Shown here: piece after piece, positions 794 through 24,300 of the stretch
How positions within the stretch are numbered: the first letter of the stretch is position 1
Layout: every line of letters begins with the position of its first letter
NCBI GenBank assembly: GCA_049511795.1
Contig: JBEKXS010000001.1
Span: forward strand, 358,288-390,287
Length of the DNA stretch: 32,000 nt
Source: Candidatus Saccharimonadota bacterium
GTDB lineage: Archaea; Nanobdellota; Nanobdellia; Pacearchaeales; GW2011-AR1
Reading direction: 5' to 3'
Notes under the pieces: generated by a model
Database searches by the model: none
Told to the model about the DNA's origin: nothing
The model's input: the letters and a program-made list of their open reading frames with translations, nothing else
Program-made: the position numbers and the translations under genes

Positions 794-1759
794 ATGGTAA
801 GATATAGGGCTGGTATGGAACGAGGATTAAGGACATTAGATTTATTTGCAGGTGTTGGTGGAATAAGACTGGGTTTTGAAAATGCAGGATTTAATACTAT
901 TTTTGCAAATGATTTTGATAAGACCTGCAAAGATACTTATGACTTGAATTTTTCAGAGCCTAAGCTTAATACAGAAGATATATGGAAATTAAATATAAGC
1001 AAAATTCCAGACTTTGATATATTGCTCGGTGGCTTTCCTTGTCAGGCTTTTTCTATTGCAGGATACAGAAAAGGGTTTAATGAAGAAAGAGGGAATTTAT
1101 TTTTTAGAATTGCAGAGATTTTAGAAGAAAGAAGACCAGAAGCTTTTTTATTAGAGAATGTAAAAAATCTTAAAGGACACGATAAAGGAAACACTTTCAA
1201 AGTTATTGAAAAGACTTTAAGAGAATTAGGCTATCACATTAAATCAAAGGTGCTTAATAGTATGGAATATGGGAATGTTCCACAGAACAGAGAAAGAATA
1301 TTTATTGTTGGATTTTTAGATAAAAAGAAAGAAGAAGCTTTTGAGTTTCCAGAGCCCATCAAATTAACAAAATCCTTTAAAGAGTTTACAGCAAAGGAAG
1401 CAGAAGATAAATATTATTACAACGATAAGCCTCTTTATGAAAGAATAAAGAATGATATTAACTCTGAAGAAACAGTTTATCAGTGGCGTAGAAAATATGT
1501 AAGAGCAAATAAGAAAGGCGTTGTTCCAACATTAACAGCAAATATGGGATTAGGCGGTCATAATGTTCCTATAATCAAAAATCATAAAGGAATAAGAAAG
1601 CTAACACCAAAAGAAACCTTTATGCTCCAAGGTTTTCCAAAAGAGTTTAAGCTCCCTGAAAATCTTGCAGACAGCAAATTATATCATCAAGCAGGGAATA
1701 GCGTAACCGTTCCAGTAATTCAAAGGATAGCGGAAAATATGATTAAAGTATTATCTTAA
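794..1759 (+). CDS. DNA (cytosine-5)-methyltransferase
   Basis: All canonical C5-MTase motifs in order: I DLFAGVGGIRLGF, IV GGFPCQAFSIAG, VI LLENVKNL, VIII QNRERIFIVGF, X AGNSVTVPV. ATG lies 3 nt after the transposase stop. Confidence 0.93.
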   Translation: MVRYRAGMERGLRTLDLFAGVGGIRLGFENAGFNTIFANDFDKTCKDTYDLNFSEPKLNTEDIWKLNISKIPDFDILLGGFPCQAFSIAGYRKGFNEERGNLFFRIAEILEERRPEAFLLENVKNLKGHDKGNTFKVIEKTLRELGYHIKSKVLNSMEYGNVPQNRERIFIVGFLDKKKEEAFEFPEPIKLTKSFKEFTAKEAEDKYYYNDKPLYERIKNDINSEETVYQWRRKYVRANKKGVVPTLTANMGLGGHNVPIIKNHKGIRKLTPKETFMLQGFPKEFKLPENLADSKLYHQAGNSVTVPVIQRIAENMIKVLS

Positions 1760-1766
1760 TTTTTTT
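1760..1766 (+). terminator. oligo-T tract (T7) right after the C5-MTase stop, possible archaeal intrinsic terminator
   Basis: taa(1757-1759) followed by ttttttt. Archaeal termination commonly uses oligo-T runs. Confidence 0.3.
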
Positions 1767-1799
1767 GGGAGATTAAGTCCCGAAGAATTAACAATACAT

Positions 1800-1869
1800 G
1801 ATTAATCAGACTTTGCACGACAAAGTAATTCTGCACGAGAATAAAGGTTTCTGCACGGAAATGCAAATG
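1800..1869. repeat. Left terminal repeat block: GATTAATCAG, inverted terminus CTTTGCACGA, and three TGCACG-core direct repeats at ~20-bp spacing
   Basis: GATTAATCAG 1800-1809; CTTTGCACGA 1811-1820; TGCACG at 1814, 1832, 1852 within CTTTGCACGACAAAG / TTCTGCACGAGAATAAAG / TTCTGCACGGAAATG. Matching partner sequences sit at 6527-6571. Confidence 0.6.
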
Positions 1870-1898
1870 GTTAAAAGTTAAGGAATCTTTCTTGATTT

Positions 1899-2614
1899 AT
1901 GAATTTTAAAAGCATCGAAAACCTTAAGGTTAATCTTAAAGAAATATCTGAAAAAGGGTTTATTGAGAATCATAGAGAAGGAGATAATGGAGGAGTTGGA
2001 AGGACTTTAGAAGATGAAATGGGTATTATAGAGAATAATCTAAAAACAGGAGATTTTAAGGTTGGAGATGAATGGGTGGAATTAAAAACACAAAGAAGAA
2101 AGGCCGCAAATAGGATTACTCTATCAACAAAAGAACCTCAATGGATTATTAATAAGTTTGAAGCAGTTAAGAAAACTGGTTATAAAGATCATAAAGGAGA
2201 ATTGGATTAAAAATTACTTTGAGTGCTTTATCTTTTAATGCTAAAGGATATAAATTAGAAATTAAGGGAAATAAAATATCTATAATAAATAAAGTGTTAG
2301 GAGAAGTTTGTTTCTTTGATAAGAAGAAGTTAATTGAAATAATTAAAGAGAAATTAGGAGAAAATATGTTGTTTGTAATTGCGGATGCGAAAAAGAAGAA
2401 TGATAAAGAATATTTCCACTTTGTTGAAGCAGAATATTTTTCCCAATTTGATGAAGATGCATTTGAAGAAATGATAAAAGATGGAAAGATAATTTGGGAA
2501 TTTAGATTACATCTAAAGTCAGATACTGCATTTAGAGATCATGGTTCTGGTTTTAGAGTTAATAGGAAATATTTGCATGAGATGTATAAAAAGAAAATTA
2601 TTCTTCTTTCTTAG
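1899..2614 (+). pseudogene. Type II restriction endonuclease of the MutH/Sau3AI/MvaI-BcnI fold, interrupted by a frameshift
   Basis: N-terminal ORF (1899-2210) has the MutH-like catalytic region DNGGVGRTLEDEMGIIENNLKTGDFKVGDEWVELKT (D..ExK). Compare MutH DKGWIGVLLEIWLG..DFAALGVELKT. The C-terminal part continues in another frame, open from 2195 and read to 2614, ending RDHGSGFRVNRKYL (compare MutH RGFYLKKNF). The frame switch must lie within 2195-2207. Confidence 0.7.
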
Positions 2615-3476
2615 CTGGTCTCCAGAAATCCAATATATATTCGAAGGTTGTTCCCATTGTAATATAATTATTGGGCCAACCAAAGATACCAGCTTTATTC
2701 ACAAGATTCCTTCTATCCCATATTATTATATTTCTTAATTCATAACCAACTTTTTCCATTTCTTCTATTACATAAAGATGCATTGGAATTCTTTTATTTT
2801 CCCACCATAAATCAGTTATATTAATTACACAATGAGCTTTATGTTTTAATAAAGGAAGAATTTTTTCATATATTTTTGCTAACTCTTGCGAATACTGCTT
2901 AGGTTCCATTGTTCCTAAATCTCTTGGATTATTAGAATATTGTTGAACTTTTTTAAAATGAACATTTTGTCTATCTTTTCCCCTCATGCTTTTATTTAAT
3001 CTTGGTCTATTCAGCATATTTGCATATGGAGGAGAAGTAACACATAAAGAAACAGATTCTTTTTCTAAATATTCTGGAATATTTAATGCATCATCATTTA
3101 TTACAATCTGTTTAGAATTTCCAACAGAAGGTGTTTCTTCCAGTCTTTTTAATGCAAAATCAGTATATTGTTTGCTTAAATCTACTCCAACAGCATTTCT
3201 GTCTAAATCCCTTGCGGCAATGAGGGTGGTCCCTATTCCTACAAAAGGATCAAGAACCAATTCTCCTTTATGTGTAAATAGTTCAATACATCTTTGTGGG
3301 AGTTCAATAGGGAAAACAGCAGGATGTATGCTTTTGTCTCTTATGTCTCTTTTCCTGTAATAAAGTTCCCATAGAGCAACTTGAGCTTTCATCCATTCTT
3401 TTGCAGTTAAACAATTAATATGATTATCTTGACAATCACAAGTTTTTTTGTATTTTATATCTAATTTCTTATTCAT
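2598..3476 (-). CDS. N4-cytosine/N6-adenine DNA methyltransferase (N6_N4_Mtase type) with SPPY motif and permuted motif order
   Basis: AdoMet motif block HPAVFPIELPQRCIELFTHKGELVLDPFVGIGTT lies N-terminal. Catalytic motif IV CVTSPPYANM lies C-terminal of it. SPPY is typical of N4-cytosine enzymes. The 3' end overlaps the endonuclease 3' end convergently (2598-2614). Confidence 0.88.
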   Translation of the reverse strand: MNKKLDIKYKKTCDCQDNHINCLTAKEWMKAQVALWELYYRKRDIRDKSIHPAVFPIELPQRCIELFTHKGELVLDPFVGIGTTLIAARDLDRNAVGVDLSKQYTDFALKRLEETPSVGNSKQIVINDDALNIPEYLEKESVSLCVTSPPYANMLNRPRLNKSMRGKDRQNVHFKKVQQYSNNPRDLGTMEPKQYSQELAKIYEKILPLLKHKAHCVINITDLWWENKRIPMHLYVIEEMEKVGYELRNIIIWDRRNLVNKAGIFGWPNNYITMGTTFEYILDFWRPAKKEE

Positions 3477-3733
3477 TTTTTATTCAATTCATTTATCTCT
3501 TCTAATATTGCTTGTTTTGGGTTTTTCAATTTATAGATTGTTTTACGGGCATCTTTTTCAGACATTCTCATTTCAAGCCAGTCTGCTTTTCTTAATTCAG
3601 AAAGAAGGACTGCTATAGCATTATCATTATTAAGAATTTTTAAAGCTTGATCTTTAGTGAACTCTTTATCTTTTAATTTACTCCAGAGTTTAGCATAACG
3701 TTTCATTATCCATTCAGGAAGATGTTGGGCCAT
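3473..3733 (-). CDS. Small (86 aa) basic protein, possibly a winged-helix/HTH regulator coupled to the methyltransferase
   Basis: Stop overlaps the MTase start (ATGA at 3473-3476). K/R-rich helical sequence. A palindrome lies just upstream. The function is a guess. Confidence 0.5.
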   Translation of the reverse strand: MAQHLPEWIMKRYAKLWSKLKDKEFTKDQALKILNNDNAIAVLLSELRKADWLEMRMSEKDARKTIYKLKNPKQAILEEINELNKK

Positions 3734-3736
3734 TTT

Positions 3737-3753
3737 ATAAGTTATTAACTTAT
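3737..3753. promoter_or_regulatory. Perfect palindrome ATAAGTTA-T-TAACTTAT next to a TATA-like TTATATAA, upstream of the small gene/MTase operon
   Basis: Read directly from sequence, 4-20 nt upstream of the ATG at 3733 (minus strand). The 13-mer ACTTATATAATAA (3748-3760) recurs at 5499-5511 upstream of the DDE transposase. Confidence 0.35.
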
Positions 3754-3958
3754 ATAATAATCTATCATTTATAAAATTTTGTTATTACTGTTTTTCTCAG
3801 AAAGAAATTTAAACATCAATTGTGTTTGTATAATAAGGGATGAATTGAAAAAGAGGGTGGAGTGGCTTTAGCTTGATTTTTCTGTCGCTTCAAATTTGAT
3901 AGTGTAAACTGAATTTTGACAAGATTCTTTAGTATAGAAGTATTTATAAAGATAATCG

Positions 3959-3975
3959 TATAGTAAGATACTATA
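3959..3975. promoter_or_regulatory. Palindrome TATAGTA-AGA-TACTATA just upstream of the PRTase-like gene, downstream of a TATA-like TTTATAAA (3943-3950)
   Basis: Perfect 7-bp inverted repeat ending 6 nt before the ATG at 3981. The position fits an operator overlapping the start site. Confidence 0.3.
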
Positions 3976-3980
3976 GTAAA

Positions 3981-4553
3981 ATGGTCGATTATAAATGTGA
4001 AGATGTAACTCATCCTGAGACTGATCTCAAAATAGAAGTCTATGCTCCACAATGGTACAAAAGAGGGCACCATGATGATGTTTACTCTCAAAAAGTTATA
4101 GACTCAAAATTAACAGATGAATCTGACTATTTCAAACCTTACATTGAACATTTGATACAAGAGCTTTTAGCTGAACATAAAATAAAAAAAGCAGATCTTA
4201 TAATTATAATCCCAAGAAGTGGAGGAACTTTTTCTCCAACACTGGAAAAGCTTGGCAATTTTCTCGCATCAAAATTTGGAGGAACCTTTGACAAAATTAT
4301 AAGGAAAAAACCATCTGACAGAAAAAATATAAGCAGCAGCACATTTTCTGAAAGGTTGAAAAAATCAGAAGAAGAGTTCGCTCTAATCAGAAGAGTTGGG
4401 CCAGATGAGAAGACTATATGGATTTTAGATGATCAAAAAACGACTGGGAGCACATTATTAGTCTGTACACAACTTTTAAAAAAATCAAGAGATTGTGAAG
4501 TTTATTGTTTTGCTCTAAGCATAAATAGAAATGTAGAACTGTTTGGAGAATAA
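3981..4553 (+). CDS. ComF/ComFC-like phosphoribosyltransferase-fold protein
   Basis: PRTase PRPP-loop signature TIWILDDQKTTGSTLL near the C-terminus, preceded by DLIIIIPRSGG. This matches the ComFC arrangement (D.i..VP...R ... vlLvDDv.TTGaT). It lacks the N-terminal Cys4 finger of bacterial ComFC. Confidence 0.65.
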   Translation: MVDYKCEDVTHPETDLKIEVYAPQWYKRGHHDDVYSQKVIDSKLTDESDYFKPYIEHLIQELLAEHKIKKADLIIIIPRSGGTFSPTLEKLGNFLASKFGGTFDKIIRKKPSDRKNISSSTFSERLKKSEEEFALIRRVGPDEKTIWILDDQKTTGSTLLVCTQLLKKSRDCEVYCFALSINRNVELFGE

Positions 4554-4567
4554 AGAGGGGAGGGTTT

Positions 4568-5488
4568 ATGGAGAAACAAGAATTAATTGACTGGCTTAAA
4601 TTTTGTAAAGTAAGAAAAATAGGATCAAGTAAAGTATTAAAGTTGTTTGGTATTTTTGGAACTTTTGATAAACTGTTTAATGCAAAAGATGAAGAACTGT
4701 ATAGGACCAGAGTTTTCGATGAAGAGATGATTAAACAATTTTCTGAAGTTAAATCTGAAGATGGATTAATTGAAAATTTTACTTTAGACATCTGCGAAAG
4801 AGAAAAAATAAAAGTAATCCCTATCTATTCTGAAGATTATCCTTCTAACCTAAAGAACTTGCCTGATGCTCCATTAACATTATATATGCAAGGAAATACA
4901 AATCTTCTCAAAGTAAGAAAAATAGCAATAGTTGGAAGCAGAAAATCAGATGAAAATGCTTTAAGGTGGGCCTTAAATGCCTCTAAGGGGTTAGTTAAAG
5001 AAGGAATTGTAATTGTAAGTGGTGGAGCAAAAGGAATTGATTATCAGGCTCATCAAGGAGCATTAAAACTTGGAGGAAAAACAATATGTGTTTTTGGTTC
5101 TGGTCTTTTAAAATTATATCCCCCAGAAAATAGAGAAATGTTTGCTGAAATAAAAAATAATGGTGGTCTTTTCATAAGTGAACATTCTCCAGCAGATAAG
5201 GGGAGCAGATTATCTTTATTAAGAAGAAATAGAATCATCTCTGGAATTTCTGATAGTATTATTATAGTTACAAGTGCAAAAGAGGGAGGATCTCGAACTC
5301 AAATAGAAATAGCTAATAAACAAAGAATCCCAATTTTTGTTCCAAAAATATCTTTAAACTTTACACCAAATGAGGGAATTAGCGATGCCATAAAACAACA
5401 TAGAATTAAAGATATAGAAAATTATGAAGAAGTTTTTATGGAAACCTATTCTAATAAGAAAAAGTTCTCAATACAGAAAACTTTATAA
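4568..5488 (+). CDS. dprA: DprA/Smf DNA-processing protein (Rossmann-like SLOG-type fold)
   Basis: IAIVGSRKSDENALRWALNASKGLVKEGIVIVSGGAKGIDYQAHQGAL...RLSLLRRNRIISGISDSIIIVTSAKEGGSRTQIE is the DprA core. N-terminal HhH/SAM-like part: VRKIGSSKVLKLFGIFGTFDKLFNA. Strong SD GGGGAGGG at 4555-4562. Confidence 0.85.
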   Translation: MEKQELIDWLKFCKVRKIGSSKVLKLFGIFGTFDKLFNAKDEELYRTRVFDEEMIKQFSEVKSEDGLIENFTLDICEREKIKVIPIYSEDYPSNLKNLPDAPLTLYMQGNTNLLKVRKIAIVGSRKSDENALRWALNASKGLVKEGIVIVSGGAKGIDYQAHQGALKLGGKTICVFGSGLLKLYPPENREMFAEIKNNGGLFISEHSPADKGSRLSLLRRNRIISGISDSIIIVTSAKEGGSRTQIEIANKQRIPIFVPKISLNFTPNEGISDAIKQHRIKDIENYEEVFMETYSNKKKFSIQKTL

Positions 5489-5541
5489 ATAGCTATATAC
5501 TTATATAATAAGTAAATAACTTATGTTATTTTATATAGAAT

Positions 5542-6540
5542 ATGGAAAACCAAAAAATACTTGCAGATTATGATAGACAGTTTAGTTGGCACAATTATAA
5601 TATAAGTCAAACAAATGAGAAAGCATTATTTGTTAATATCCTTGCTGATTTATGCTCTTTAATAGAAGAACCAACTCATTCTAAGGGAAGAAAGCCAACA
5701 AAAACAAGAGATGTTATCTTTTCCATAGTAATGCAGCAATATCTTAATACTTCTTCAAGAAGAGTTCAAAGCGACTTAAAGCTGTTTAAGGAAGCAAATT
5801 TCATTGACTCTGAAATTCCATTTAATACATTACTTGATCATTTGGAAAGACCTGAATTAAAGTACATCTTAAAAGAACTTATAGAGATTTCTTCATTGCC
5901 TTTAAAACAGATAGAGCTTGATTTTGCTATTGATTCAACGGGATTTGGAACTTCAAGATATAAGACTTTCTTTAATATGAAACATATGGGAGAGGGAAAA
6001 TGGAAGCAGTATAGAAAATGTCATGCTGTCTGCGGTATCAAGAGCAATATTATAACTTCAGTGGATATAACAGAAGGTTATGTTAATGATCAAACACAAT
6101 TTATTCCTCTTGCAGAAGATACAGCAAGAAATTTCAAAATAAGAGACTTCTGTGCTGATAAGGGGTATTTATCTTCACATAATTTTAGATTGATAAAAGA
6201 GCTTGGAGGACAAGCATTCATTCCATTCAAGAAAAACACAAGTGGAAATTCTTCTGATAATGAAAGAAGTTATTTTAGATCAGCATTCAGGTTTTTTAAA
6301 CAAAACAAAGAAAGTTATATGAAACATTATCATAAAAGAAGTAATATAGAAAGTGCATTTTCAATGATTAAAAGAAGATTCGGAAACAATGTAAAATGCA
6401 AGAAAGAAACCTCTCAAGATAATGAAATTTTAGCTAAGGTTCTTGCTCATAATCTTTGTGTTTTAGCTCAAGAATTGTTTCTAAATAATATAAGTTTAGA
6501 TTTTAATTTTCATACAAAGAGATATATTGCACGGAATTAG
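5542..6540 (+). CDS. DDE transposase (IS4/IS5-superfamily, DDE_Tnp_1-like)
   Basis: DDE contexts DFAIDSTGFGT, FCADKGYLSSHN, and HYHKRSNIESAFSMIKRRFG (the typical ...E..FS.IKR.FG signature). The last codons contain a TGCACG repeat unit. Confidence 0.85.
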   Translation: MENQKILADYDRQFSWHNYNISQTNEKALFVNILADLCSLIEEPTHSKGRKPTKTRDVIFSIVMQQYLNTSSRRVQSDLKLFKEANFIDSEIPFNTLLDHLERPELKYILKELIEISSLPLKQIELDFAIDSTGFGTSRYKTFFNMKHMGEGKWKQYRKCHAVCGIKSNIITSVDITEGYVNDQTQFIPLAEDTARNFKIRDFCADKGYLSSHNFRLIKELGGQAFIPFKKNTSGNSSDNERSYFRSAFRFFKQNKESYMKHYHKRSNIESAFSMIKRRFGNNVKCKKETSQDNEILAKVLAHNLCVLAQELFLNNISLDFNFHTKRYIARN

Positions 6541-6571
6541 GTTTAGTTCTCGTGCAAAGCCGATTAATCAG
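6527..6571. repeat. Right terminal repeat block: TTGCACGG (plus), TCGTGCAAAG (inverted) and GATTAATCAG
   Basis: 6528-6533 TGCACG; 6550-6559 TCGTGCAAAG; 6562-6571 GATTAATCAG. Also, 6541-6559 GTTTAGTTCTCGTGCAAAG matches the reverse complement of 1827-1846 (CTTTATTCTCGTGCAGAATT) with one indel. Confidence 0.6.
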
Positions 6572-7182
6572 TAAGAATCCTTGTACCTTCCGCGGGCTTC
6601 AACTTTCTTGAACTGTTCCAAAACACTTTTGGTATTTTTTGAAGAAGAATAACCTTTTTCAACTTCATGGAAAAGGATTTGCCAGTGTATGAAATGTTTT
6701 GCCTCCAAAGCTTGCTTAAGAAGATGCAAATCAACTGCCTTGTCTTCTGTTTTGTGGCTGTGAAATCCAAGACCAAAATCAATGAAAAAAACTTCATTGT
6801 CTTTCAAAATCATATTGCTTGTCGTCAAATCTCCATGAATTATGTCCGCATCATGGAGTTTTGCAATATTTTCCCCTATTTGTCTGCAGATTTCTTTTTG
6901 CTTTTTAAGAGAAAAAGAATCAAGATTGTCTGAAAGTTTTTTTCCATTGATGAATTCCATTGTTATCTCTTTTGTTTTTTCATCAACTTTCTTAACATGA
7001 GGAACACTTGCAACTTTTCCAGCTTTTTCAATTAGTTTTGCTTCTGATCTTGTTCTTAACTTTCTTATTTCCTCATCAATTTCAGGAAGCCTGTAAGATT
7101 TTTTTATTCTTTTTTTTATAACAGAATTATCATCTAACAAAATTACAGCTTCTGCACCTTGCTGAATTACTTTTTCTGCCAT
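6568..7182 (-). CDS. bud32: Bud32/PRPK-type small protein kinase (KEOPS subunit)
   Basis: Short atypical kinase: GAEAVI, IKKRI.K.YR, EAKLI, ITMEFI.G, IIHGDLTTSNMIL, FFIDFGLG, EDKAVDLHLL. Size of 204 aa is typical of archaeal Bud32. Confidence 0.85.
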   Translation of the reverse strand: MAEKVIQQGAEAVILLDDNSVIKKRIKKSYRLPEIDEEIRKLRTRSEAKLIEKAGKVASVPHVKKVDEKTKEITMEFINGKKLSDNLDSFSLKKQKEICRQIGENIAKLHDADIIHGDLTTSNMILKDNEVFFIDFGLGFHSHKTEDKAVDLHLLKQALEAKHFIHWQILFHEVEKGYSSSKNTKSVLEQFKKVEARGRYKDSY

Positions 7183-7193
7183 TTTTGTTTAAT

Positions 7194-7586
7194 TTAATGG
7201 TCCCAAAGATAAATAAGAAAGACTAAGCCAACAAGTAAACCAAAATCTACTAACAGACAGAATTCACAAATAGCTTTTATAACAAAAATCTGGATGAATA
7301 AAAAATAAAGTGAGATCAGGGAACCAATTATGACTGCCGCATGAATAATATTTCTTGTATGCCTACTTGGATTATTTATATGAAACAAAGTCAATAAAAT
7401 CATGAAAGAGAAAATGAAAATGCCGTAAACCGAATTTTTTATCCCAAATAAAGAAGCATAAGGAGAGCTGTTGACTATTGAGCATCCCTGGCCTGGAGCA
7501 CATATTCCTGTAGAAGGATTTGTTGTAATTATTATAGAGCTTATCAAACCAATAACAAAAACAAAAAGGAAGACTTTGTATTTCAT
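7194..7586 (-). CDS. VKOR-family membrane thiol oxidoreductase
   Basis: Polytopic membrane protein with loop Cys pair and motif GICAPGQGCSIVNSSPYASLFGIKNSVYG, plus a CxxC in the last helix (AICEFCLL). This is the VKOR arrangement. Confidence 0.6.
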   Translation of the reverse strand: MKYKVFLFVFVIGLISSIIITTNPSTGICAPGQGCSIVNSSPYASLFGIKNSVYGIFIFSFMILLTLFHINNPSRHTRNIIHAAVIIGSLISLYFLFIQIFVIKAICEFCLLVDFGLLVGLVFLIYLWDH

Positions 7587-8134
7587 CTTATAAATTGAAG
7601 AATCTCTGGGATTTTTTCAGTTTTATTAAAATGTTCTTCATCCTTTTTAATTATTACTTTTGCTCCTAAATTTTTTCTAAATTTTTTAACTTCATCAAGA
7701 TGAACAAAAGGGTCATTGTCTGAAAAAATAGCTAAAAATTCATTGCAATGGCTAAGAACTCTTGAAAAATCAATTTCAGTGCTTGTCCAGGGATGAGCAA
7801 TTTTCATTTCTTCCTCACCTTGATTAATCAAATCAAACCACGGAGCAATAAAAGCACATTTTCCAATTTTTACATGTTTAGGCAGTTTTTCAAGATATCT
7901 TAAAATTGTCTGGCAACCTATGCTATGACCAATAAAATAAGTCTGTTCATCAACATCTTTGATATTTTCCTTCATATAATTAACCCATTCTTCTATTTTT
8001 GGCTTATCTGTATTGGGCATATCAAAAATAATTAATTTTATATCTATTTTATCAAATTCCTCTTTAAGCCAGGAAAACCAAGGCTCACTTGAAGAGTTTC
8101 CACCCCATCCATGAATTAAATATACTTTTTTCAT
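7583..8134 (-). CDS. Alpha/beta serine hydrolase, YdeN/RBBP9-like
   Basis: VYLIHGWGGNSSSEPWFSWL, nucleophile elbow FIGHSIGC, C-terminal D..H region (SDNDPFV ... EEHF). Confidence 0.6.
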   Translation of the reverse strand: MKKVYLIHGWGGNSSSEPWFSWLKEEFDKIDIKLIIFDMPNTDKPKIEEWVNYMKENIKDVDEQTYFIGHSIGCQTILRYLEKLPKHVKIGKCAFIAPWFDLINQGEEEMKIAHPWTSTEIDFSRVLSHCNEFLAIFSDNDPFVHLDEVKKFRKNLGAKVIIKKDEEHFNKTEKIPEILQFIR

Positions 8135-8583
8135 TTTTTGATAAATCTTACCTTTAAAGTTTCAAAGTCTTCTTCTTTATTTGGTCCTGTGAAATGAAAG
8201 ACTTCAAAATGTAAATGTGGAGCAAATGTGAACCCAGTATTTCCAGAATAACCTATTAATTGCCCTCTTTTTACTCTTTCTCCTACTTTTACCAAAACTC
8301 CTTTATATTTTAGATGCTCATAACCAGTAAATTCTTCATTTATGTGCCTTATTACAATTCTATTGCCATCATTCCAATATTTTTTATCTGGACCACCAAT
8401 ATTTGAGTTATTTTTAACCCATACTACCTCTCCATCTAAAGCAGCAAAAACAGGTGTCCCTTCTTTACACAAAAAATCAACAGCATTTTCTAATTTTCCT
8501 GTATGTGCAGGAGGTTCTTTACTTAATATTTTGCTGACGTCTTTTTTTTTGATAGGAAAGCTATATTGATTTTTACTTTTCAT
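8131..8583 (-). CDS. M23 (LytM-type) metallopeptidase domain protein
   Basis: VFAALDGEVVWV..GNRIVIRH..GYEHL..VKVGERVKRGQLIGYSGNTGFTFAPHLHFEV. No obvious signal peptide. Confidence 0.8.
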   Translation of the reverse strand: MKSKNQYSFPIKKKDVSKILSKEPPAHTGKLENAVDFLCKEGTPVFAALDGEVVWVKNNSNIGGPDKKYWNDGNRIVIRHINEEFTGYEHLKYKGVLVKVGERVKRGQLIGYSGNTGFTFAPHLHFEVFHFTGPNKEEDFETLKVRFIKK

Positions 8584-8584
8584 G

Positions 8585-9952
8585 TTAAAACCTTATTTTT
8601 TTGATTTTGCCGAATTTCTTTGCGAGCTTTTGCATTTGTCTTTGATCAAGTCCTTTTGACATATCCATTCCACTGCCTGATTTAACCATTTCATTAAGGA
8701 GCTTGTACTGTTTGAGAAGAGAACGAACATCACTTCCATGAACACCTGCACCCTGGGCAACACGAGAAATTCTGCTTGTCTGCTTTTCCAGCAATTCTGG
8801 ATTTTCTTTTTCCTCTTTTGTCATTGACTTGAGAATATGTTCCCATTTTGCAAGTTTTGCTTCTTGGCTTTCAAGAACATTTTCTGGAATTTTTGCTGAA
8901 CCAAAGCCTGGAATCATTGATTTTATTTTTTCAAATCCACCCATTGAATTCATTGAACGAACCTGTTCTATAACATCTTCAAGACTGAGTTTTCCTTCTG
9001 CAATCTGTGCCTGCATTTTTTTCTGCTTTTTTTCATCTGTTACAGAGCGTATTTTTTCCATTAAAGCTTCCAAGTCCCCCATACCAAGAAGTCTTGAAAG
9101 GAAAGATGATGGATTGAATTCTTCAATATCATTTATTTTTTCACCTGTTGTTATAAAATAAACAGGAGCTTTTGTTTCAGCGCAGGCAGTTAATGCTCCG
9201 CCTCCTTTAGCTGTTGAGTCCATTCTTGTTATGATAACTCCGGTAATTTTCAATGCTGCAAGAAATTCTTGAGCTTGCTTTTTAGCAGCCTGTCCAATAT
9301 CGGCAGGCATTACAAGTATTGTTTCTGTAGGCTTGATTTCCTTGTCAAGCGCTTTTATTTCTTCGATTAAATCTTTGTCTAGAGTATGCCTTCCTGCTGT
9401 ATCAATAACAACAACATTGTAATCTTTCAGCTGTTTTTCAAAACTTTTCCAAAGCTTCACAGCATTTTTTTCTTTTAAATCCACAAAACAATTCAGGTGA
9501 TTTCTTTCTGCAAGTTGCTGCAATTGTTCTGGGGCTGCTGGCCTGTAAACATCAAGACCAACAAGTGCTGACTTGTTTCCACGTTTTGCATAATAATTTC
9601 CTAATTTTGCTATAGTTGTTGTTTTACCTGCTCCATACAAACCAAGAAGCATAATTCTGTTCTGTGTTTTTTTCAATTCAAGAGGCTTGTATTCACCAAG
9701 AATTTTTGTAAGCTCGTCATGAAGAAGCTTGATTATGTGCTCTTTTTTTTCTATGCCCTTAATTCTTTCATCGAGAGCTGCTTTTCTTATCTTTTCGCTG
9801 AGCTCTTTTACAAGAAGAACATTAACGTCTGCTTCAATAAGCGCACGCTGCAGGTCTTTTATTATAGAATCAACCATATCTTTGTCAAGAAATATGGCAT
9901 TTGCTATCTTGTTTGTTGTTCTTCTTAACAAGTCTCCTAATTTTTCTAGCAT
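8585..9952 (-). CDS. srp54: Signal recognition particle protein SRP54
   Basis: N domain, then G domain GLYGAGKTTT, DTAGR, TRMD, and a Met-rich M domain (MNSMGG..IKSMIPG..MQKL). Confidence 0.95.
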   Translation of the reverse strand: MLEKLGDLLRRTTNKIANAIFLDKDMVDSIIKDLQRALIEADVNVLLVKELSEKIRKAALDERIKGIEKKEHIIKLLHDELTKILGEYKPLELKKTQNRIMLLGLYGAGKTTTIAKLGNYYAKRGNKSALVGLDVYRPAAPEQLQQLAERNHLNCFVDLKEKNAVKLWKSFEKQLKDYNVVVIDTAGRHTLDKDLIEEIKALDKEIKPTETILVMPADIGQAAKKQAQEFLAALKITGVIITRMDSTAKGGGALTACAETKAPVYFITTGEKINDIEEFNPSSFLSRLLGMGDLEALMEKIRSVTDEKKQKKMQAQIAEGKLSLEDVIEQVRSMNSMGGFEKIKSMIPGFGSAKIPENVLESQEAKLAKWEHILKSMTKEEKENPELLEKQTSRISRVAQGAGVHGSDVRSLLKQYKLLNEMVKSGSGMDMSKGLDQRQMQKLAKKFGKIKKIRF

Positions 9953-16219: not shown

Positions 16220-16309
16220 TTTTTCAGTCTTATTTGAAAATTTATTTCTATTTTAAGATATTTTATTCTAAGTAACTAACTTAGTAAATAACTAATTTAT
16301 TAAGAAACA

Positions 16310-16353: not shown

Positions 16354-16491
16354 ATGAAAAAATATTTACTTCTTGTAGAAGATGAAAAACTCTGGGAAAA
16401 ATTTAAGCAGAATATAAAAAAAGACCTTAATACAGAAATAATAGAACTTATCAGAAAAAAAATTGAAGAGGTGAAGAAGCATGAGAAATAA
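16354..16491 (+). CDS. 45-aa ribbon-helix-helix-like small protein (not in the supplied ORF track)
   Basis: MKKYLLLVEDEKLWEKFKQNIKKDLNTEIIELIRKKIEEVKKHEK: a beta-strand (YLLLV) followed by two helices, CopG/Arc-like size and pattern. SD AGGTGG 4 nt upstream. Overlaps the next gene's start by 11 nt. Confidence 0.45.
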   Translation: MKKYLLLVEDEKLWEKFKQNIKKDLNTEIIELIRKKIEEVKKHEK

Positions 16492-18310
16492 AAAGGGTCA
16501 GGTTACTATATTCATAATCATTGCAGTTGTCATTGTTGCTCTGGTTTTGGGTTATCTTTTGCTAAGAAACTCTATTGCACCACAGAGCATTCCAGGCGAC
16601 ATACAGCCAGTTTATGACAGTTTTGTTTCCTGTCTGCAAGACAACACCCAAACAGGAATTAGTGTTCTTGAAAGTCAAGGAGGTTACATAAACCTCCCTG
16701 CATTTGAGCCAGGAAATACATACATGCCATTTTCTTCACAGCTTAATTTTGCAGGAACTCAGATACCTTACTGGTATTATGTATCTGGGAATAACATACC
16801 AAAAACACAAATACCCTCTCTTAATGATATGCAAATCGCATTAAGTAGCTTTGTTTCCCAGAAAATAAGAAGCTGCGACTTGAGCTCTTACTATGACCAA
16901 GGTTTTGTTGTCAAAATGGGAAATCCAAGCAGCTCTGTCAATATAAAAAACAGCGAAGTTGATGTTAGTTTGTCAATGCCTCTTACAATACAAAAAGGAA
17001 ATGAGACAGCTGTTGTAAACACGCATAAAATTGTAGTTACATCTTCTTTAGGAGAATTATATAATTCTGCGCAAACTGTTTATAATGATGAACAAAAAAA
17101 TATGTTTTTGGAAAATTATACAATTGATGAGTTGAGAACTTATGCGCCCGTTGATGGAGTCCAAGTTACATGCGGACCTTTAATTTGGAATGCAAATGAT
17201 ATTTTTGACACATTGCAAAATGCAATAACAGCAAACACTCTTGAATTAAAATCAAATGGGGCTACAAATGACTACTTTGCATTGCATCTTCCTATAAATG
17301 ATAATGTTAGATTTTTGACTTCGCAAAACTGGTCAAATAGCTTTGAAGTTTCTCCAGCAGATGGACCAATATTAACTGCTTTGCCCGTAGGAAATCAACA
17401 AGGATTAGGCATTCTTGGATTCTGTTATGTCCCTTACCATTTTGTTTACAATATAAAATACCCTGTTTTGATACAAGTATACAACCAAAATGAAATTTTC
17501 CAGTTCCCATTTGCAGTTGTTATACAAGGAAACAATCCAAGACAGCCATTGCCAGGAACAGCAACATCTGAAACTCCTAATGATCTTTGCCAATATAATA
17601 ATACACAAATACAAGTTACGACAGTTGATAAAAATCTGAATCCAATAATAAACGCAACAGTTTCATATGAATGCATTCAGCAGGAATGTTCAATTGGTTC
17701 AACAGATATCTCTGGAAGCTTAAGTGCAAATTTCCCACAATGCGCTAATGGATATGTAATTGCAACAGCACCAGGATTTAAAGATACAAAATATCTTTTC
17801 TCAACAGTGCAGCAAGGTTCTTTAGAAATTATTATGGATAAAGTTTACCAAACAAACATCCAATTACTTGTTGATGGACAGCAATATACAGGCATAGCAA
17901 TGATAACATTTAGTTCAGACTCTTCAACACAAACACTTGCATGGCCTGACCAGAGAACAGTAAACTTAAGTGAAGGTAATGAAAATATAACTGTCCAAGT
18001 ATATAAGAACAGTTCAATAACAATACCTGCAACAACAACACAACAATGTGTGACTGTTCCAAATGGAATTTTGGGAATAATTGGATTGACAAGACAAGAT
18101 TGTTTTGAGGTAAAAGTCCCCCAGCAAATAATTTCAAATGCTCTTGCTGGAGGAGGAAATATAGAACAATATTTCCTTGAGACCGATTTGGCGCAAGGAA
18201 AAACTTTGCAGATAAATGCGCCAGGCTTGCCGACACCAACAACAATAGATGATGTTCAAAATAATTATAATTTATTTGACCAAAATCAATTAACTGTTAA
18301 TTTAGTATAA
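16481..18310 (+). CDS. Secreted/surface protein (609 aa) with archaeal class III (type IV pilin-like) signal peptide
   Basis: MRNKKG|QVTIFIIIAVVIVALVLGYLLL matches the [KR]G|Q + hydrophobic helix prepilin pattern (compare KKGQ in methanococcal pilins). Q/N/S/T-rich body with 10 Cys. A carboxypeptidase-regulatory-like beta-sandwich stretch: VTTVDKNLNPIINATVSYEC...GYVIATAPGFKD. SD GAGGTGA at 16468-16474. Confidence 0.75.
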   Translation: MRNKKGQVTIFIIIAVVIVALVLGYLLLRNSIAPQSIPGDIQPVYDSFVSCLQDNTQTGISVLESQGGYINLPAFEPGNTYMPFSSQLNFAGTQIPYWYYVSGNNIPKTQIPSLNDMQIALSSFVSQKIRSCDLSSYYDQGFVVKMGNPSSSVNIKNSEVDVSLSMPLTIQKGNETAVVNTHKIVVTSSLGELYNSAQTVYNDEQKNMFLENYTIDELRTYAPVDGVQVTCGPLIWNANDIFDTLQNAITANTLELKSNGATNDYFALHLPINDNVRFLTSQNWSNSFEVSPADGPILTALPVGNQQGLGILGFCYVPYHFVYNIKYPVLIQVYNQNEIFQFPFAVVIQGNNPRQPLPGTATSETPNDLCQYNNTQIQVTTVDKNLNPIINATVSYECIQQECSIGSTDISGSLSANFPQCANGYVIATAPGFKDTKYLFSTVQQGSLEIIMDKVYQTNIQLLVDGQQYTGIAMITFSSDSSTQTLAWPDQRTVNLSEGNENITVQVYKNSSITIPATTTQQCVTVPNGILGIIGLTRQDCFEVKVPQQIISNALAGGGNIEQYFLETDLAQGKTLQINAPGLPTPTTIDDVQNNYNLFDQNQLTVNLV

Positions 18311-18311
18311 A

Positions 18312-21300
18312 ATGAAGAAAAAAATGTCAAAGAAAGAGAGAATTTTAACTAGGAAGAACTTTAGCGCTATTCCAATAATTGGGCTATTTTTAATATTAAC
18401 ATTATTTTTTGTATCATTTGTTTCTGCACAAGGCTCTTATGTAAGGGCAGCACCTGCATACACTTATGGTCAGCAGACAAGCTCGTTCTTTGGATTGCAA
18501 AATTATCCGCAGATTGATCCTAACATGTGCAATAATAGACAAGATTTTATTTTACAAGTAGATCCTCTTGGCTGCACACCAAGTGTTGTTACAAGTGACC
18601 TTCTGGGACAGCAAAATGTTCCTGTATTTTGCCCTATTGTTGCAACACAATTAAATCCGCTTATGAGCGTAAATGCGATAAATAATATGATATTAACACA
18701 GCAGCCTGGAACAAGCTTTTCAAATAATATTGCTGGTGTAAATTATTTTCCTGCACAAGCTGCACTTGGTCAATATAACCCATCGATAACTTCTCAATAT
18801 CTGGGGAATATAGGATATGCAACAATAGTTTTAAGACAGCAGCCAAATGAATCTGCAATGCCTAGTTTTGTCCAAGGAAATATTACAGCGCAAATAAGCT
18901 ATAATATACAGAATGCATTTGGCGTGGGAAATGCAGCATATTATTTGCAAACATTAAATGACAGTGATTTTAATAATAATATAAATGCTTACAGTTTCTG
19001 GAACGGAAAAGGGTTTGTAAGACTGGATAGCGCTGATAATACAGGTGCAACTGTTTCTATTTATTCAGGAGTAAGCGGTGCTGCAAGCCAAAGTACTGCC
19101 AAACAAAAAATTGCTACACTAAATCTAAAACCAGGCGAAACCTCTTCTGATGTTTATCTTCCTGGATTTGGATTATGCATGGGAGGCTTGAAAGTGCAGT
19201 TAAACGACCTTGAAAATCCAGATACAGTTGCAAAAATTGTTGTTGATTCAAATGTTGTTGATTTGAAAGCAGGAGATTCATTCCTTGATGGAAAATGTAC
19301 TGTTAATACTATTACCAAATACGGAATTAATCAGAATGTGCAGATTTCTTGCAGTGAGGATCAACAACATAGTAGCTTTGCACTTGGCATAAATCCTAAA
19401 ATAAACCTTACAATTTCAAACCCAACTATGGGAACAGTAACAAGACCATACAGTGTAGGCGACCATTTATTTGATTTCCAGGACGGGTCAAAAACATATG
19501 GGGTTTATCTTGGGTTCATAGGCAACAACGGGAAAACTGGCTCAATAAATGATGCTTACCTTTGGCTTCTTACAGTTCCTTCTGATGTGAGCACTGAAAC
19601 ATCTTTGTCAAATGATGAAGTTGCTTCTATAGCTAGTCTTGACAGTCATTTAGTTACTCCAACTGTAGGACAGGGATTTTGGGGTGCAGCAATAACTATT
19701 GGAAGTGACCTTCTTAGAGGCGCAGGCCAGGGCATAAAAACAATTGTTACTGGAAAGGGCCTTACTCCTATTTCTTATTCAAGTTCTGGAACAAGTGTTG
19801 GTGGGACAAATATACAGATTCTTGGTTATGCAGGAGCTTATAATGCTGATATTTCCAAATTGCCAGGAAATGTATTTACGTCTTACACAAATGCAATGAA
19901 TGATTATCAGACAATTGTCCAAAATTATGGAGGAGAAACAAGTGCTACGGGTTCATCACAGACTACTTATGGAGAACAGGCACTTGAACAAGAAATAAAT
20001 CTTGCAGGAAGTTTCAACCAGAAAAAAACTGCGCTGCAACTTTGTCAGCAATATTCACAAAGTTATGGACCTGCTCCTGATAATATATGCAACGACCCTG
20101 TTCTTTTGTCAAGCACGTCTACATCTGAGCAGAGTGTTATTATTAATGGACAGACACATACAATTTCATTTGAAGGAATAACAGCACCAAGTTTTGATCA
20201 GTTTGGAGTAAAACTCACTATAGGATACCCAAATAATGGGGTTCCTATAACTGTTACGTTACAGAAAAATCAGATATATTATGTTAATGAAACAACAGGA
20301 GAATATATACAGCTTACTGATTTAACTCCTACATCTGCAACTTTTACTACAAACTTAGTGCTTGCAGGAACAACATTGCAGAACATAAAGAATTTTGCAT
20401 CAAGCACAGGAAGCCATACACTTAAAGTTGGAACTCAGGATAATTTCGGAGGTGCTTATACATTTGCAATTCAACAGATAAATTTGCAACAGGTAGCAAA
20501 AGTTTCAATACAATCTGATATAAATTATGCACACTCAAATGCGAGCTTCAGTTTTAAGATTGGAATTGAAAAGAGCGCAATACAACTAACCCCAAACCAG
20601 ACAAAACAAAGAATTAGTGATTTAAACAAAACAATTAATCAATGGCAAAGTCTTCAGAACGATCTTAATACTGTTGTTAAGGTAGGAAAAACAGCATGCC
20701 TTATTACAGAAGTTGGACTACTTGCAAAAAACTTTGTTGCAAACCTCGGCGGTGCAGGAGTTGCAAGACAAGCTGTTATGAGAAATTCTGGAGGATGGGA
20801 TGACAAGTGTGCAGCTATGGTTAAGGCAGGGCAGTATACAAGTGTTGAAAATTGCCTTCAAGCAAATTCTGCTGCTGTCGATGCATCTGTAAATACATAT
20901 GATGCACAGGTTCAAGCTCAAAACCAAAATATACAGACTCTTAGCCAGGGACTTCCAACAACTACTGTTGCAGGAGAGAAAGTTGCAGATAGTGGGCAGC
21001 TTTTCAATAAGATAAATTCTTCTGTAATAACAGGCCTTTCAAACAACGCCAATGCAATATCTTCTAATGGACAGATAAAAGTTGGTAACCAAAATGTGAA
21101 TATTGCAGATGCAGCCCAAAGAATAAACTCTAACACAGCTACACTTTCACAGGTGGAACAGCTTCAATTAAACTTAGGATTAATAAATTCAAATGATCCT
21201 ACTGTAAAAGCTGTTGCGCAAAACCAAGTTCAAAACATTCTTGGGCAGATTTACAGCAATTCAAATCTTTATACTCAGCAAAATGATTTGACAAAACAAT

Positions 21301-24300
21301 ATGGTGCACAATTTGTCATAAGCAGTAATGAAAAACTTATAAACATCCCATTAAGCGGAGAAACATTCTCTCAATTACAAAATGTTAAAGGACTTTCTCT
21401 TCCTGGAACCACACCTGTTCAGCTTTATAGAGATCAAGTTACTGGCCAAAATTATCTTTTAGTTTTGAATAGCGCCAATGTTATAACACAAACATATCAA
21501 ATAGCAGGTGATGGAACATTGAGCATAGTTAATCAAAATATTGCAAATCCATTAAAGCTTAATCCTGTTACAGCTAATTCATTTAATAACAAATACTTGA
21601 ATCCAACCGTTCAATATTTTGAAACAGGACAGTATGCTGGATTGCCTGCAATTGTTCCATTTGATATCCAAAATGGTTGGTATGCCGCAATAAAATCAAA
21701 TCTTCCAAATATTCCAGTAGTTGGCACTACAGGTAATATAAATTCTTACGAATCTTCCACAAGAGTTTCAAGTTTTTTTATCTGCAATGTTGGTCAAAAT
21801 GGCAAAGAGGATAATATGGGTGTAGATGACAATTGTGAACAGTTCACTCCAGGTTCAAGCCAGCAGCCACCTCTTTTCTCAGGCGCTTTGACAGCAACAC
21901 AGTCCCAGGCATTAGAAACAAAAGCCATAAATGCAATCCAGCAGGCAACATCACAGAAAAAATCAGGCATTACTCAGATAGCAATAAATGGTGTAGGAAA
22001 GATAAATGTAGGCCAACCATCTGCAGGCACACCTGCTATACAATGTGAAGACTTTGAGTCTCCAAGTGATTGCAACATTTTGTTCAATGTTTGTGACCCT
22101 GTCATATGCCCTTCGAGCAGATGCAATTTAGGGGGTGCATATACTGTTCAGGACGTGATACAGTCAGGAATAATTGGGAGCCTTGCACTTTGCTATCCAA
22201 ATTTCCCACAAATAAAAATTCCAATTTGTTTGTCAGGAGTTAATGCTGGATTGCAAGGTTATATCAGTGTTTTAAAATCCTATCAACAATGCCTGCAAAC
22301 TAACCTAAATACAGGTCAACAAGTAGGAATCTGTGATGAAGTCAATAGTGTTTATCAATGCCAATTCTTTTGGAAGCAACTTATACCTGTTGTGAATTAT
22401 GCTCTTCCAAAAATAGCTGGAAATGTTTTAGGACAAAATTCAGGGACGGGTGGCGGAGAATATTTAGCAGGTACAGATGCTCTGACAAATGCACAGAAAT
22501 CAGTTGATTACTTCAGCCAATATTATGCTGCAAATTCATACAAAGCTTTCCAGGAAAGGTCAACAGAAAGTGTTGGAGATTCTGTTTGCCAGAACTTTAT
22601 GTCTCTTTCAACACCAAATGGAGGAAATCTTTTTGATGCGTTAATCACGCCTGATTCGCCTGTGCAATTCTATGGACAATTTAATGAAGCTCCTTATACA
22701 ACTGCAACAAATCCACCAACATCACAATACAATGTTTTCTATCATATTTATGCAGGAACAGATTTCCCTGCTTACTATCAGGTTTATCTGAAGGGTTCTG
22801 CAAGTTCATTTTATCAAGATACCGGAGTGAGCAGAGTTGTTGCAACAGGTGTAGTTCCTGTTGGGCAATTTATGACTAACACAAGTGTATTCACAGCCCC
22901 TTCTGGTTATCAGCAATTGTGCATTGTAGTTAATGGGCAAGAACAATGCGGCTTCAAACAGGTAACAACTGATTTTGGAGTTAATTATGTGCAGCAGCAA
23001 TATCTTTCTTCCCAAGCATCGCAGACAAATATAACCTCTCAAGCAAACTGTAACTCTGGAACACCAAGTCTTTATAGTTTATTAAATCCAAATGCACAAG
23101 CAGGTGTTACAAATGCTGCAAATCCTGCAATTTACAACCAGGGAATAATAAGAATATGTTCTACAAATAATCCAGCACAGGGAACAGACCCAAACTGGAA
23201 TACACCAAATGCAAGATGGCAGAAAGTTGGTTATTGTGATACACAAAATATTGGATGCTGGCTTGATACACAAAGCGTTTCAAATGTAATACAAAACCAA
23301 AATATTCTGAATGCAACATTACAACCAGTAACTTCACAATTTGTAAATGCTTTGCAGGCTCAAAATGGATTCTTTGATAATCAAGGATTCTCTTCTTATT
23401 TATTGTCTTTGGATACGTTGAGAGATCAACATCAGGATTCTCAGATAATATCATCAATAACACAAAATCTTTCAAAAGCTTCATTGAGTATTCAGAAAGC
23501 AGAGTTATATTTGAGAAGAGGGAATGCTTATGGTGATATATCACTTGCAGGAAATCCAAATGCGCCTTCTCCTCCTGTAAACCCAAATGCTAAACCAGAT
23601 GGTGCTAGCTGTGCTCAAGCCTCAGATTGTCAGTCAAATTATTGTGATCAGACTGCAAGTCCACCTACATGTTCTTCGCCAACTCTTCCAACAATAAATG
23701 TAAATTCTGGAACGAGTTTTGAATCACCAGTATTCCAATTCCATGATGGTACAGTATACATTAAATATGTAAGTGGGTCTTCTAACCTTTATTATAAATT
23801 CACAAATGGGCAATGGTACTGGTCTTCTGACCAAAATAATTGGTTTAATACTGTTGCAAGTCCAACAGAACAATCACAATCTGGTTTACCTGGCGCAACA
23901 CTTTCATCAACAAATCAATATTTCATTACAAATTTATTAAATAATTACGGAACTTCATATTCTGGAGGATTATCTCAGTTATTAAAAAGAACTACTGATA
24001 ATAAAGAGGGAGTTTTTGGCACTTCACTTACTACAGATAATGTACAATTTTCTAATGATGGAACTTTTACAGTTAATGGAATTCATATGTCACCTGGATC
24101 TTTCCCATTACAAACAAAATTCAGATTTTCATACACACAAAATCAATGGCAATGGTCCCCTGCGAGCGCTAATGACTGGACATCTGTATCTCAGTATGCA
24201 ATACAGGGAACAAGTGGGGATACATTTTCAGGCCAGTTAGCGAAAGGAGATGTTAATACTTTATTAAATGCTTTAAATGCTATGCAGGGCAGTGATGCTT

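Follow-up and report, generated by a model that had tools for sequence, protein, structure and literature searches.

The 32-kb window analysed here, the whole stretch taken from contig JBEKXS010000001.1 of a Pacearchaeota (DPANN) host, contains at 1809-6561 a 4753-bp transposon in which a single transposase gene is accompanied by five passenger genes. The transposase gene lies at the right (5542-6540, plus strand) and encodes a 332-amino-acid (aa) DDE protein. The passengers are, from the left, an MvaI/BcnI-type restriction endonuclease gene that is now frameshifted (1899-2614, plus), a gene for an N4/N6 DNA methyltransferase with an SPPY motif (2598-3476, minus), a gene for an 86-aa winged-helix regulator-like protein (3473-3733, minus), a gene for a 190-aa phosphoribosyltransferase (PRTase; 3981-4553, plus) and a gene for a 306-aa DprA-like protein (4568-5488, plus). 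Immediately to the right is a Bud32/RIO-type kinase gene (6568-7182, minus). A preliminary description of this DNA had proposed that a cargo-carrying transposon with essentially this gene content, including the decayed endonuclease, the SPPY methyltransferase and the regulator-like gene, was inserted at the end of bud32; domain searches agree with the gene list, and the boundaries of the element and the anatomy of its relatives bear out the proposal.

The window has two copies of the decamer GATTAATCAG and no more (1800-1809 and 6562-6571), against 0.17 expected from shuffled sequences, and just inside them CTTTGCACGA (1811-1820) faces TCGTGCAAAG (6550-6559), both as previously described. The length of the direct repeat had to be corrected, because G1809 is base 1 of the left end in the register of 52 related ends. 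The target-site duplication is thus a perfect 9 bp rather than 10, namely GATTAATCA at 1800-1808 and again at 6562-6570, a register that derives from the tip GGCTTTGC and from 26 related duplications, and the transposon runs from the left end GACTTTGCACGA to the right end GGCTTTGCACGA. The palindromic character of GATTAATC, which had seemed to blur the distinction between target duplication and repeat tip, is no longer an ambiguity because the flanks vary among elements while the tips stay constant. As had been noted, the kinase gene ends within the right copy of the duplication, which includes its TGA stop (6568-6570, minus strand), and because insertion duplicated this stop codon the kinase protein is unchanged.

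Each end contains more than a terminal repeat. The left terminal inverted repeat includes a first site, L1 (GACTTTGCACGACAAA, 1809-1824, plus), and is followed by the subterminal sites L2 (TTCTGCACGAGAATA, 1829-1843, plus), with its core at element position 24, where nearly all relatives have a core repeat, and L3 (TTCTGCACGGAAATG, 1849-1863, plus), with its core at element position 44. The right terminal inverted repeat, which reads GGCTTTGCACGAGAAC on the minus strand (6546-6561), is accompanied by an internal site, ATTGCACGGAATTAG (6524-6538, plus), which is inverted with respect to the right tip, lies at position 28 from the right and overlaps the last transposase codons. The hexamer TGCACG occurs nine times in the window, against 2.8 expected, and five of the nine copies are within the two ends (1814, 1832, 1852, 6528 and 6551).

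We conclude with high confidence that a single unit transposon, an insertion sequence (IS) with passenger genes, occupies 1809-6561 and is a member of a large family with a distant relationship to the IS903 group (IS5 family). The simplest alternative is that the transposase gene and the right end constitute an ordinary short IS without a left end, the distant left motif and the repeat being a coincidence or a stray solo end. It draws on the fact that no left end adjoins the transposase gene, given that nothing resembling the end sequence was found in the directly upstream segment 5489-5541, and on the composition of GATTAATC, which is palindromic and AT-rich and makes short repeats less improbable, two copies of the decamer being reached in 1 of 100 shuffles. 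This alternative is nevertheless extremely unlikely: the 9-bp repeat lies exactly where the conserved tips of the family independently predict it, the left end has all three conserved subterminal sites at the family positions, and the layout with a distant left end and perfect duplications recurs in at least 26 other elements, whereas none has an adjacent left end.

With up to two mismatches, GGCTTTGCACGA has four matches in the window, at 1809-1820, 6550-6561, 10243 and 24616, of which the last two are isolated, have neither subterminal repeats nor repeat architecture, and are chance matches. A compound transposon was rejected: there is only one transposase of this type, and the left boundary is an end of about 55 bp, not an IS; the IS6-like gene (56-790) is outside the duplication.

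The anatomy of the family was established with loci of relatives fetched from species genomes and metagenomes, both archaeal and bacterial. A naive inverted-repeat search close to the transposase genes of these relatives yielded nothing meaningful, and a motif-based approach was adopted. The conserved right tip, GTGCAAAGCC, follows the transposase stop at a distance of 1-20 nt in dozens of relatives from archaea and bacteria alike; its reverse complement, GGCTTTGCAC, sits kilobases upstream of the transposase gene, with an identical 9-base sequence outside each tip. Among 79 loci with a recognisable right end, 77 had at least 200 bp of upstream sequence, and in none of these 77 does a left end come closer than 300 bp to the transposase start. 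Both ends were found in 45 loci, 26 of them with a perfect 9-bp duplication; in these 26 elements, the distance from the left end to the transposase gene is 1.4-5.7 kb, with a median of 3.5 kb. Five more elements were delimited beyond the 26. The partner end that the preliminary description had placed 3.7 kb to the left of the transposase gene, having seen nothing similar next to it, has its counterparts in the relatives, whose left ends do not hug the transposase gene either.

The tip is GGCTTTGC in 43 of the 52 related ends and AGC in nine, and reads GGC at the right end and GAC at the left end of the window element; tip positions 2, 3 and 5-7 are invariant in the 52. In nearly all delimited elements, a core of 7-12 nt is repeated at fixed positions from the ends: at the left at positions 6, 24 and 44-45, in direct orientation, and at the right at position 6, inverted at 28 (37 in some bacterial members) and often direct at 46 (55). 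The cores in the window match these positions (1814, 1832 and 1852 at the left; 6551, on the minus strand, and 6528 at the right), the third right site being degenerate. The core varies by transposase lineage (TGCACGA, TGCACAT, TGCACAA, TGCCCGA, TGCCTCA) and is uniform within each element. Such uniformity, combined with co-variation by lineage, is what is expected of sites bound by an element's own transposase, and we regard the repeated end sites as putative transposase-binding sites.

Because the subterminal positions are conserved across the family, TGCACG is not a general regulatory motif of the genome, a concern that had been raised at the outset. A rival reading is that the TGCACG-type sites are operators through which the winged-helix regulator or a host factor controls expression of the cargo. 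The three left sites do lie just upstream of the first cargo gene (start 1899), and the regulator is confined to these elements. The sites, however, are present at either end, each at a set distance from the tip, and elements without a regulator have them too (L014, L016, L023, L034, L040 and L049); their core co-varies with the transposase lineage; and a different palindrome, TAAGT-N5-ACTTA, is a better operator candidate for the regulator. An operator role for the TGCACG-type sites appears quite improbable.

An IS4-type element had initially been suggested, which did not hold. The protein matches Pfam DDE_Tnp_1 (3.8e-24), and its best NCBIfam model is IS5_2, which aligns end to end but, with 124.8 bits, does not reach its cutoff of 140. 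The IS4 family was rejected: the IS4_1 model gives 50.5 bits where 115 are required, far less than IS5_2. The catalytic residues D131, D206 and E270 and the signature Y263-R266-E270-K277 are intact and invariant across 29 sequences. The closest annotated relatives on plasmids are IS5-family elements such as ISAba10, whose transposase is 24% identical and matches in hhalign with a probability of 97.6%. ISAba10 has the ends GGCTTTGTTGCATAAATA, with the tips GGCTTTGTTG, and a 9-bp duplication, TCTTGAAAA. We also observed in ISAba10 (L180, 1197-1262) an internal end copy, GTTGCATAAATA, located over the transposase stop in the orientation opposite to the right tip, which resembles the inverted site at position 28. 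A Tn7-like or Tn3-family identity was rejected as well: no TnsABC-type, TnpA (about 1000 aa) or resolvase domains are found in any open reading frame (ORF) of the element. Judged by its 9-bp duplication, GGC tips, DDE and YREK residues, IS5_2 as the best model and the ISAba10 profile match, the family is a distant branch of the IS903 type within the IS5 family, from which it differs in size, cargo and the triple left-end sites. An exhaustive search for relatives gave at least 558 transposase clusters at 50% identity (E <= 1e-30). The bacterial relatives of the transposase (P0125-P0271) are mostly 380-480 aa long and have some 90-100 extra N-terminal residues compared to the archaeal 332-aa proteins.

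The mechanism that we propose rests on this conserved anatomy and on knowledge of IS903. The single 332-aa transposase, encoded at the right end, would recognise repeated sites of the form TTYTGCACGRAAAT, that is, three direct copies at the left end and, at the right end, a terminal copy together with an inverted internal one. It would cut at the GGC tips and insert the whole segment through a 9-bp staggered cut, which would produce the duplication GATTAATCA. The restriction-modification pair, with its nuclease now frameshifted, the regulator and the PRTase and DprA-like pair would travel along as cargo, and the insertion in the window falls precisely on the stop codon of the Bud32-like kinase and leaves its protein unaltered.

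The mobility of the family is seen in close relatives. A 4091-bp element with an 80%-identical transposase and five further genes is present in at least 3 genomic contexts with its cargo intact, and one copy (L092) is flanked by the perfect duplication TACTTCGTA. Copies of this element (L090, L091, L092 and L100) have mixed flanks, with left and right flanking sequences that belong to different sites, which indicates several copies per population combined with homologous recombination or chimeric assembly. Three more close relatives, with transposases 80-82% identical to that of the window and with different cargo, are bounded by perfect duplications: L089 (6666 bp, TATCCATGA), L101 (6714 bp, GTTTTAGAG) and L183 (7217 bp, AAGCTATTG). 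The cargo of L183 (1807-9023) is unusual and includes a proteasome-subunit-like gene, a MazE antitoxin, a PD-(D/E)XK nuclease and an Eco57I-type enzyme.

The copy in the window is itself single and fixed. It has 0 differences in six contigs from different samples, and every copy of the identical transposase is at the same locus. At the second base of the left end, the G shared by all 52 other ends is replaced by A. In IS903, the outermost end bases are needed for the chemical steps of transposition. Because position 2 of the left end is mutated and only one copy exists, the window copy is probably immobilised and decaying. As to the further copies and the empty site that the preliminary description had suggested looking for, the relative with the 80%-identical transposase carries its cargo at several sites, the identical transposase is known from one locus only, and no empty site was found.

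Several findings count against our interpretation or narrow its reach. All 23 contigs that were read for an identical kinase gene either carry the element or break off inside it, so that no empty site is represented among them, and the exact empty-site 22-mer, CATGATTAATCAGTAAGAATCC, has no match in the metagenome contigs. The sequence expected across an empty site or an excision junction is ...CATGATTAATCAGTAAG..., and neither an excision product nor a presence/absence polymorphism was seen among the contigs; we therefore infer the mobility of the window copy from its structure. For about half of the distant relatives (around 40% identity, mostly bacterial), no ends could be defined, and a generic search for duplications and inverted repeats delimited only 5 of 80 relatives that were unmatched by the first right-end pattern. 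The statement that the family always carries cargo holds for the 77 loci with a recognisable right end. Furthermore, five loci (L009, L090, L091, L044 and L046) have both ends without a matching duplication, which points to recombination between copies or to chimeric assembly. In one of these, L009 (1409-7029), from a 72%-identical relative in Nanoarchaeota, the ends are 5.6 kb apart and the flanks have no 9-bp match (GAGAAAGAT vs GATTCAGCT), which suggests a rearrangement between two copies.

A single, fixed copy, in a family whose cargo modules are clearly exchanged between elements, would also fit a scenario in which the first insertion was of a short ancestral element that acquired its cargo later in situ, so that the 4.75 kb never moved as a unit. 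We consider this scenario improbable: there are no cargo-free members among the 77 loci, close relatives demonstrably move with several kilobases of cargo, and the module of winged-helix, PRTase and DprA-like genes is already linked to such transposases elsewhere. Transposition of the entire segment, with its passengers, remains our preferred explanation.

The cargo is highly variable across the 26 distinct delimited elements. Recognisable cargo genes mostly encode DNA methyltransferases (C5, D12, N6, Eco57I-type and EcoRI), restriction nucleases and GmrSD type IV enzymes, along with HNH and PD-(D/E)XK nucleases and STAND-like NTPases. Restriction or modification genes are present in 10 of the 16 delimited elements of archaeal or unknown metagenome origin, and in 11 of the 26 overall; several bacterial elements contain only unknown genes, and one carries a secreted protease. 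Unusual cargo, namely genes for DruA, NurA-like and HerA/DUF87-like proteins, was observed in the close relative L186 (about 1600-9030), where the right tip is degenerate (GCAAAATC).

In the window element, the first two passengers are a restriction-modification pair of the MvaI/BcnI type. The frameshift splits the endonuclease gene into ORFs of 103 aa (1899-2210) and 131 aa (2219-2614), which place positions 3-86 and 101-227 of the Pfam model MvaI_BcnI in two reading frames, and the same split is found in all copies in the population. The methyltransferase (Pfam N6_N4_Mtase, 1.7e-28; PADLOC MTase_II, 3.6e-119) is intact. No copy thus has the intact nuclease of a type II restriction-modification system, and the methyltransferase is now effectively an orphan methylase.

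The PRTase gene ends 14 nt upstream of the DprA-like gene. Shosta, a toxin-antitoxin defence system, is laid out in this way, with adjacent genes in the order PRTase, then DprA-like (PMC11961720). The PRTase is ShosT-like, with PADLOC matches to ShosT (5.4e-8) and PsyrT (5.8e-6) and a Pfam match to Pribosyltran (0.0017); the ShosT match, 31 bits, is weak, covers the PRTase part only and does not include an N-terminal hydrolase domain, and a PDB sequence search with the PRTase returned no match. The DprA-like protein matches PADLOC ShosA (8.8e-57) over its full length, positions 20-294 of 303, including the N-terminal SAM-like region, and Pfam DNA_processg_A (1.4e-59). We propose that the two genes probably constitute a Shosta-type toxin-antitoxin defence module rather than competence genes, recognising that this assignment combines a strong ShosA match, which is also expected of a canonical DprA, with a weak ShosT match. 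The preliminary description had listed both genes, calling them ComF-like and DprA; the competence-type naming fits less well than a Shosta-like pair.

It is nonetheless conceivable, if unlikely, that the pair consists of true competence or recombination genes of the archaeon (ComFC and DprA) whose position within the element is fortuitous. Canonical DprA models score the DprA-like protein as well as ShosA does, so that sequence alone cannot separate the two: TIGR00732 dprA gives 188 bits, just below the cutoff of 191, and in the PDB the best match is DprA of Streptococcus pneumoniae, at 105 bits compared to 91.5 bits for ShosA. The PRTase, for its part, lacks the N-terminal hydrolase domain of Escherichia coli ShosT (PMC11961720), and its match to the TIGR comF model, at 28 bits far below the cutoff, is as weak as that to ShosT. 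Against a competence role stand the gene order, which is the defining layout of Shosta and PsyrTA, the full-length ShosA match, the location of the pair inside the transposon boundaries beside a restriction-modification module, and the recurrence of the pair as a module in a second transposon with unrelated ends, next to GmrSD-HNH, EcoRI methylase and PD-(D/E)XK nuclease genes. Since the pair is most likely a mobile toxin-antitoxin defence module, these apparent competence genes are unfit for inferring natural transformation in this archaeon.

The second transposon (L181, 1-7038) came from a search for PRTase homologues, which retrieved a single relative with 60% identity, encoded in the same regulator-PRTase-DprA module and adjoining genes for a GmrSD-HNH nuclease, an EcoRI methylase and a PD-(D/E)XK nuclease. 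It represents a sister lineage: its transposase is 32% identical to that of the window, its ends are made of GTCCG/CGGAC repeats, not TGCACG, and an extra 180-aa ORF follows the transposase gene. The module proteins of the two elements are 60-80% identical (80% for the DprA-like protein). The presence of the same module with such a divergent transposase and different end repeats indicates that modules have been exchanged between transposon lineages.

The regulator-like protein has weak SarA/Rot and MsvR matches. Seven other elements encode homologues, and none was found in the DNA around the elements at any fetched locus; homologues occur in only a subset of the DPANN elements and are absent from many members, so the regulator was rejected as a universal backbone gene. 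Two palindromes of the form TAAGT-N5-ACTTA are candidate operators in the window element: TAAGTTATTAACTTA (3738-3752), directly upstream of the regulator gene, and TAAGTAAATAACTTA (5509-5523), 19 nt upstream of the transposase start. This palindrome occurs 3 times in the window (3738, 5509 and 16269), against 0.03 expected, and paired copies upstream of the regulator and transposase genes are also seen in L181, L010 and L015. The regulator may thus control its own gene and the transposase gene through a shared candidate operator, an idea suggested by the placement of the palindromes that we advance tentatively, with somewhat more doubt than confidence. The third copy, at 16269-16283, is outside the element, in the intergenic stretch that precedes a 45-aa ORF and two very large ones of 609 aa and 2252 aa (16481-25070).

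The left flank of the transposon contains an IS6-family transposase gene (56-790), followed by a C5 cytosine methyltransferase gene (794-1759), and in a longer contig (L001, 2834-6218) a Bsp6I-type nuclease gene is located just beyond these. The transposon thus landed next to a second restriction-modification system, apparently interrupted by another IS, which makes the locus a small defence island.

Curators of ISfinder and TnCentral recognise passenger-carrying IS, known as transporter IS (tIS), only in the IS1595 and IS66 families, and a 2019 survey of integrated elements of archaea stated that no passenger-carrying DNA transposons had been detected in this domain (PMC6563490). A literature search for the end sequences and for passenger-carrying elements of the IS5 family, with ISfinder entries outside its scope, found no description of the family. 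These IS903-like elements, which carry cargo at all 77 loci with a recognisable right end, apparently form a large undescribed family, and we rate the combination of IS903-like chemistry with a tIS layout as without earlier report in this lineage and host range. More broadly, we put forward a composite proposal to which, taken as a whole, we give slightly less than an even chance. Under this proposal, an unrecognised and widespread IS903-derived lineage (at least 558 clusters), for which cargo is obligatory, evolved asymmetric multi-site ends; a transposon-borne regulator controls the transposase via a shared palindromic operator; and the lineage is a main vehicle for the shuffling of defence modules, such as restriction-modification, GmrSD, Shosta-like, Druantia-like and STAND systems, within the DPANN archaea and across the boundary between archaea and bacteria. 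The chief value of the finding is that it exposes a whole transposon family. If the composite proposal is true, archaea would have their first well-defined family of cargo-carrying DDE transposons. The family would add a third, large lineage of passenger-carrying IS beside IS1595 and IS66; its clear ends and duplication length allow automatic delimitation and would hence give a direct catalogue of mobile defence genes in DPANN archaea and several bacterial phyla.

The comparison with known systems brings out both the affinities and the distinct features of the family. With the IS903 group (IS903 and ISAba10), it shares a DDE_Tnp_1 transposase of about 310-330 aa with the Y-2-R-3-E-6-K signature, terminal repeats that start with GGCTTTG, a 9-bp target duplication and an internal end copy in opposite orientation over the end of the transposase gene. 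In contrast to that group, the transposase identity is only about 24% and the window protein is under the NCBI IS5_2 cutoff; the elements are 2.4-7.2 kb long, compared to about 1 kb for the compact, transposase-only IS903 type; passenger genes (1.4-5.7 kb) separate the left end from the transposase gene in every delimited member; and the left end has three direct repeated sites instead of a single 18-bp repeat. The tIS, as defined by ISfinder and TnCentral, likewise combine a single transposase with terminal inverted repeats, a target duplication and passenger genes inside the element; the present family is IS5/IS903-like, however, and cargo is apparently the rule rather than an occasional variant.

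Among defence-carrying elements, Tn7-like transposons resemble the family in their variable, defence-rich cargo and in the asymmetric multiple transposase-binding sites, putative in the present family, at their ends (PMC8649781). They differ in that the elements described here lack TnsA, TnsB, TnsC, a target selector and attachment-site targeting, and have a single small DDE_Tnp_1 transposase and a 9-bp rather than 5-bp duplication. Putative mobile forms of restriction-modification systems are similarly linked to transposases and bounded by repeats (PMC2853133), whereas here a defined transposase family, with its ends and duplication length, explains the mobility, and the cargo is wider than restriction-modification. 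Finally, at the level of the cargo, the window element shares with Shosta (ShosTA) and PsyrTA the succession of a PRTase gene and a DprA-like gene with SAM-like and Rossmann domains (PMC11961720). It differs in the 190-aa PRTase without the N-terminal hydrolase domain of the E. coli ShosT and in the archaeal host.

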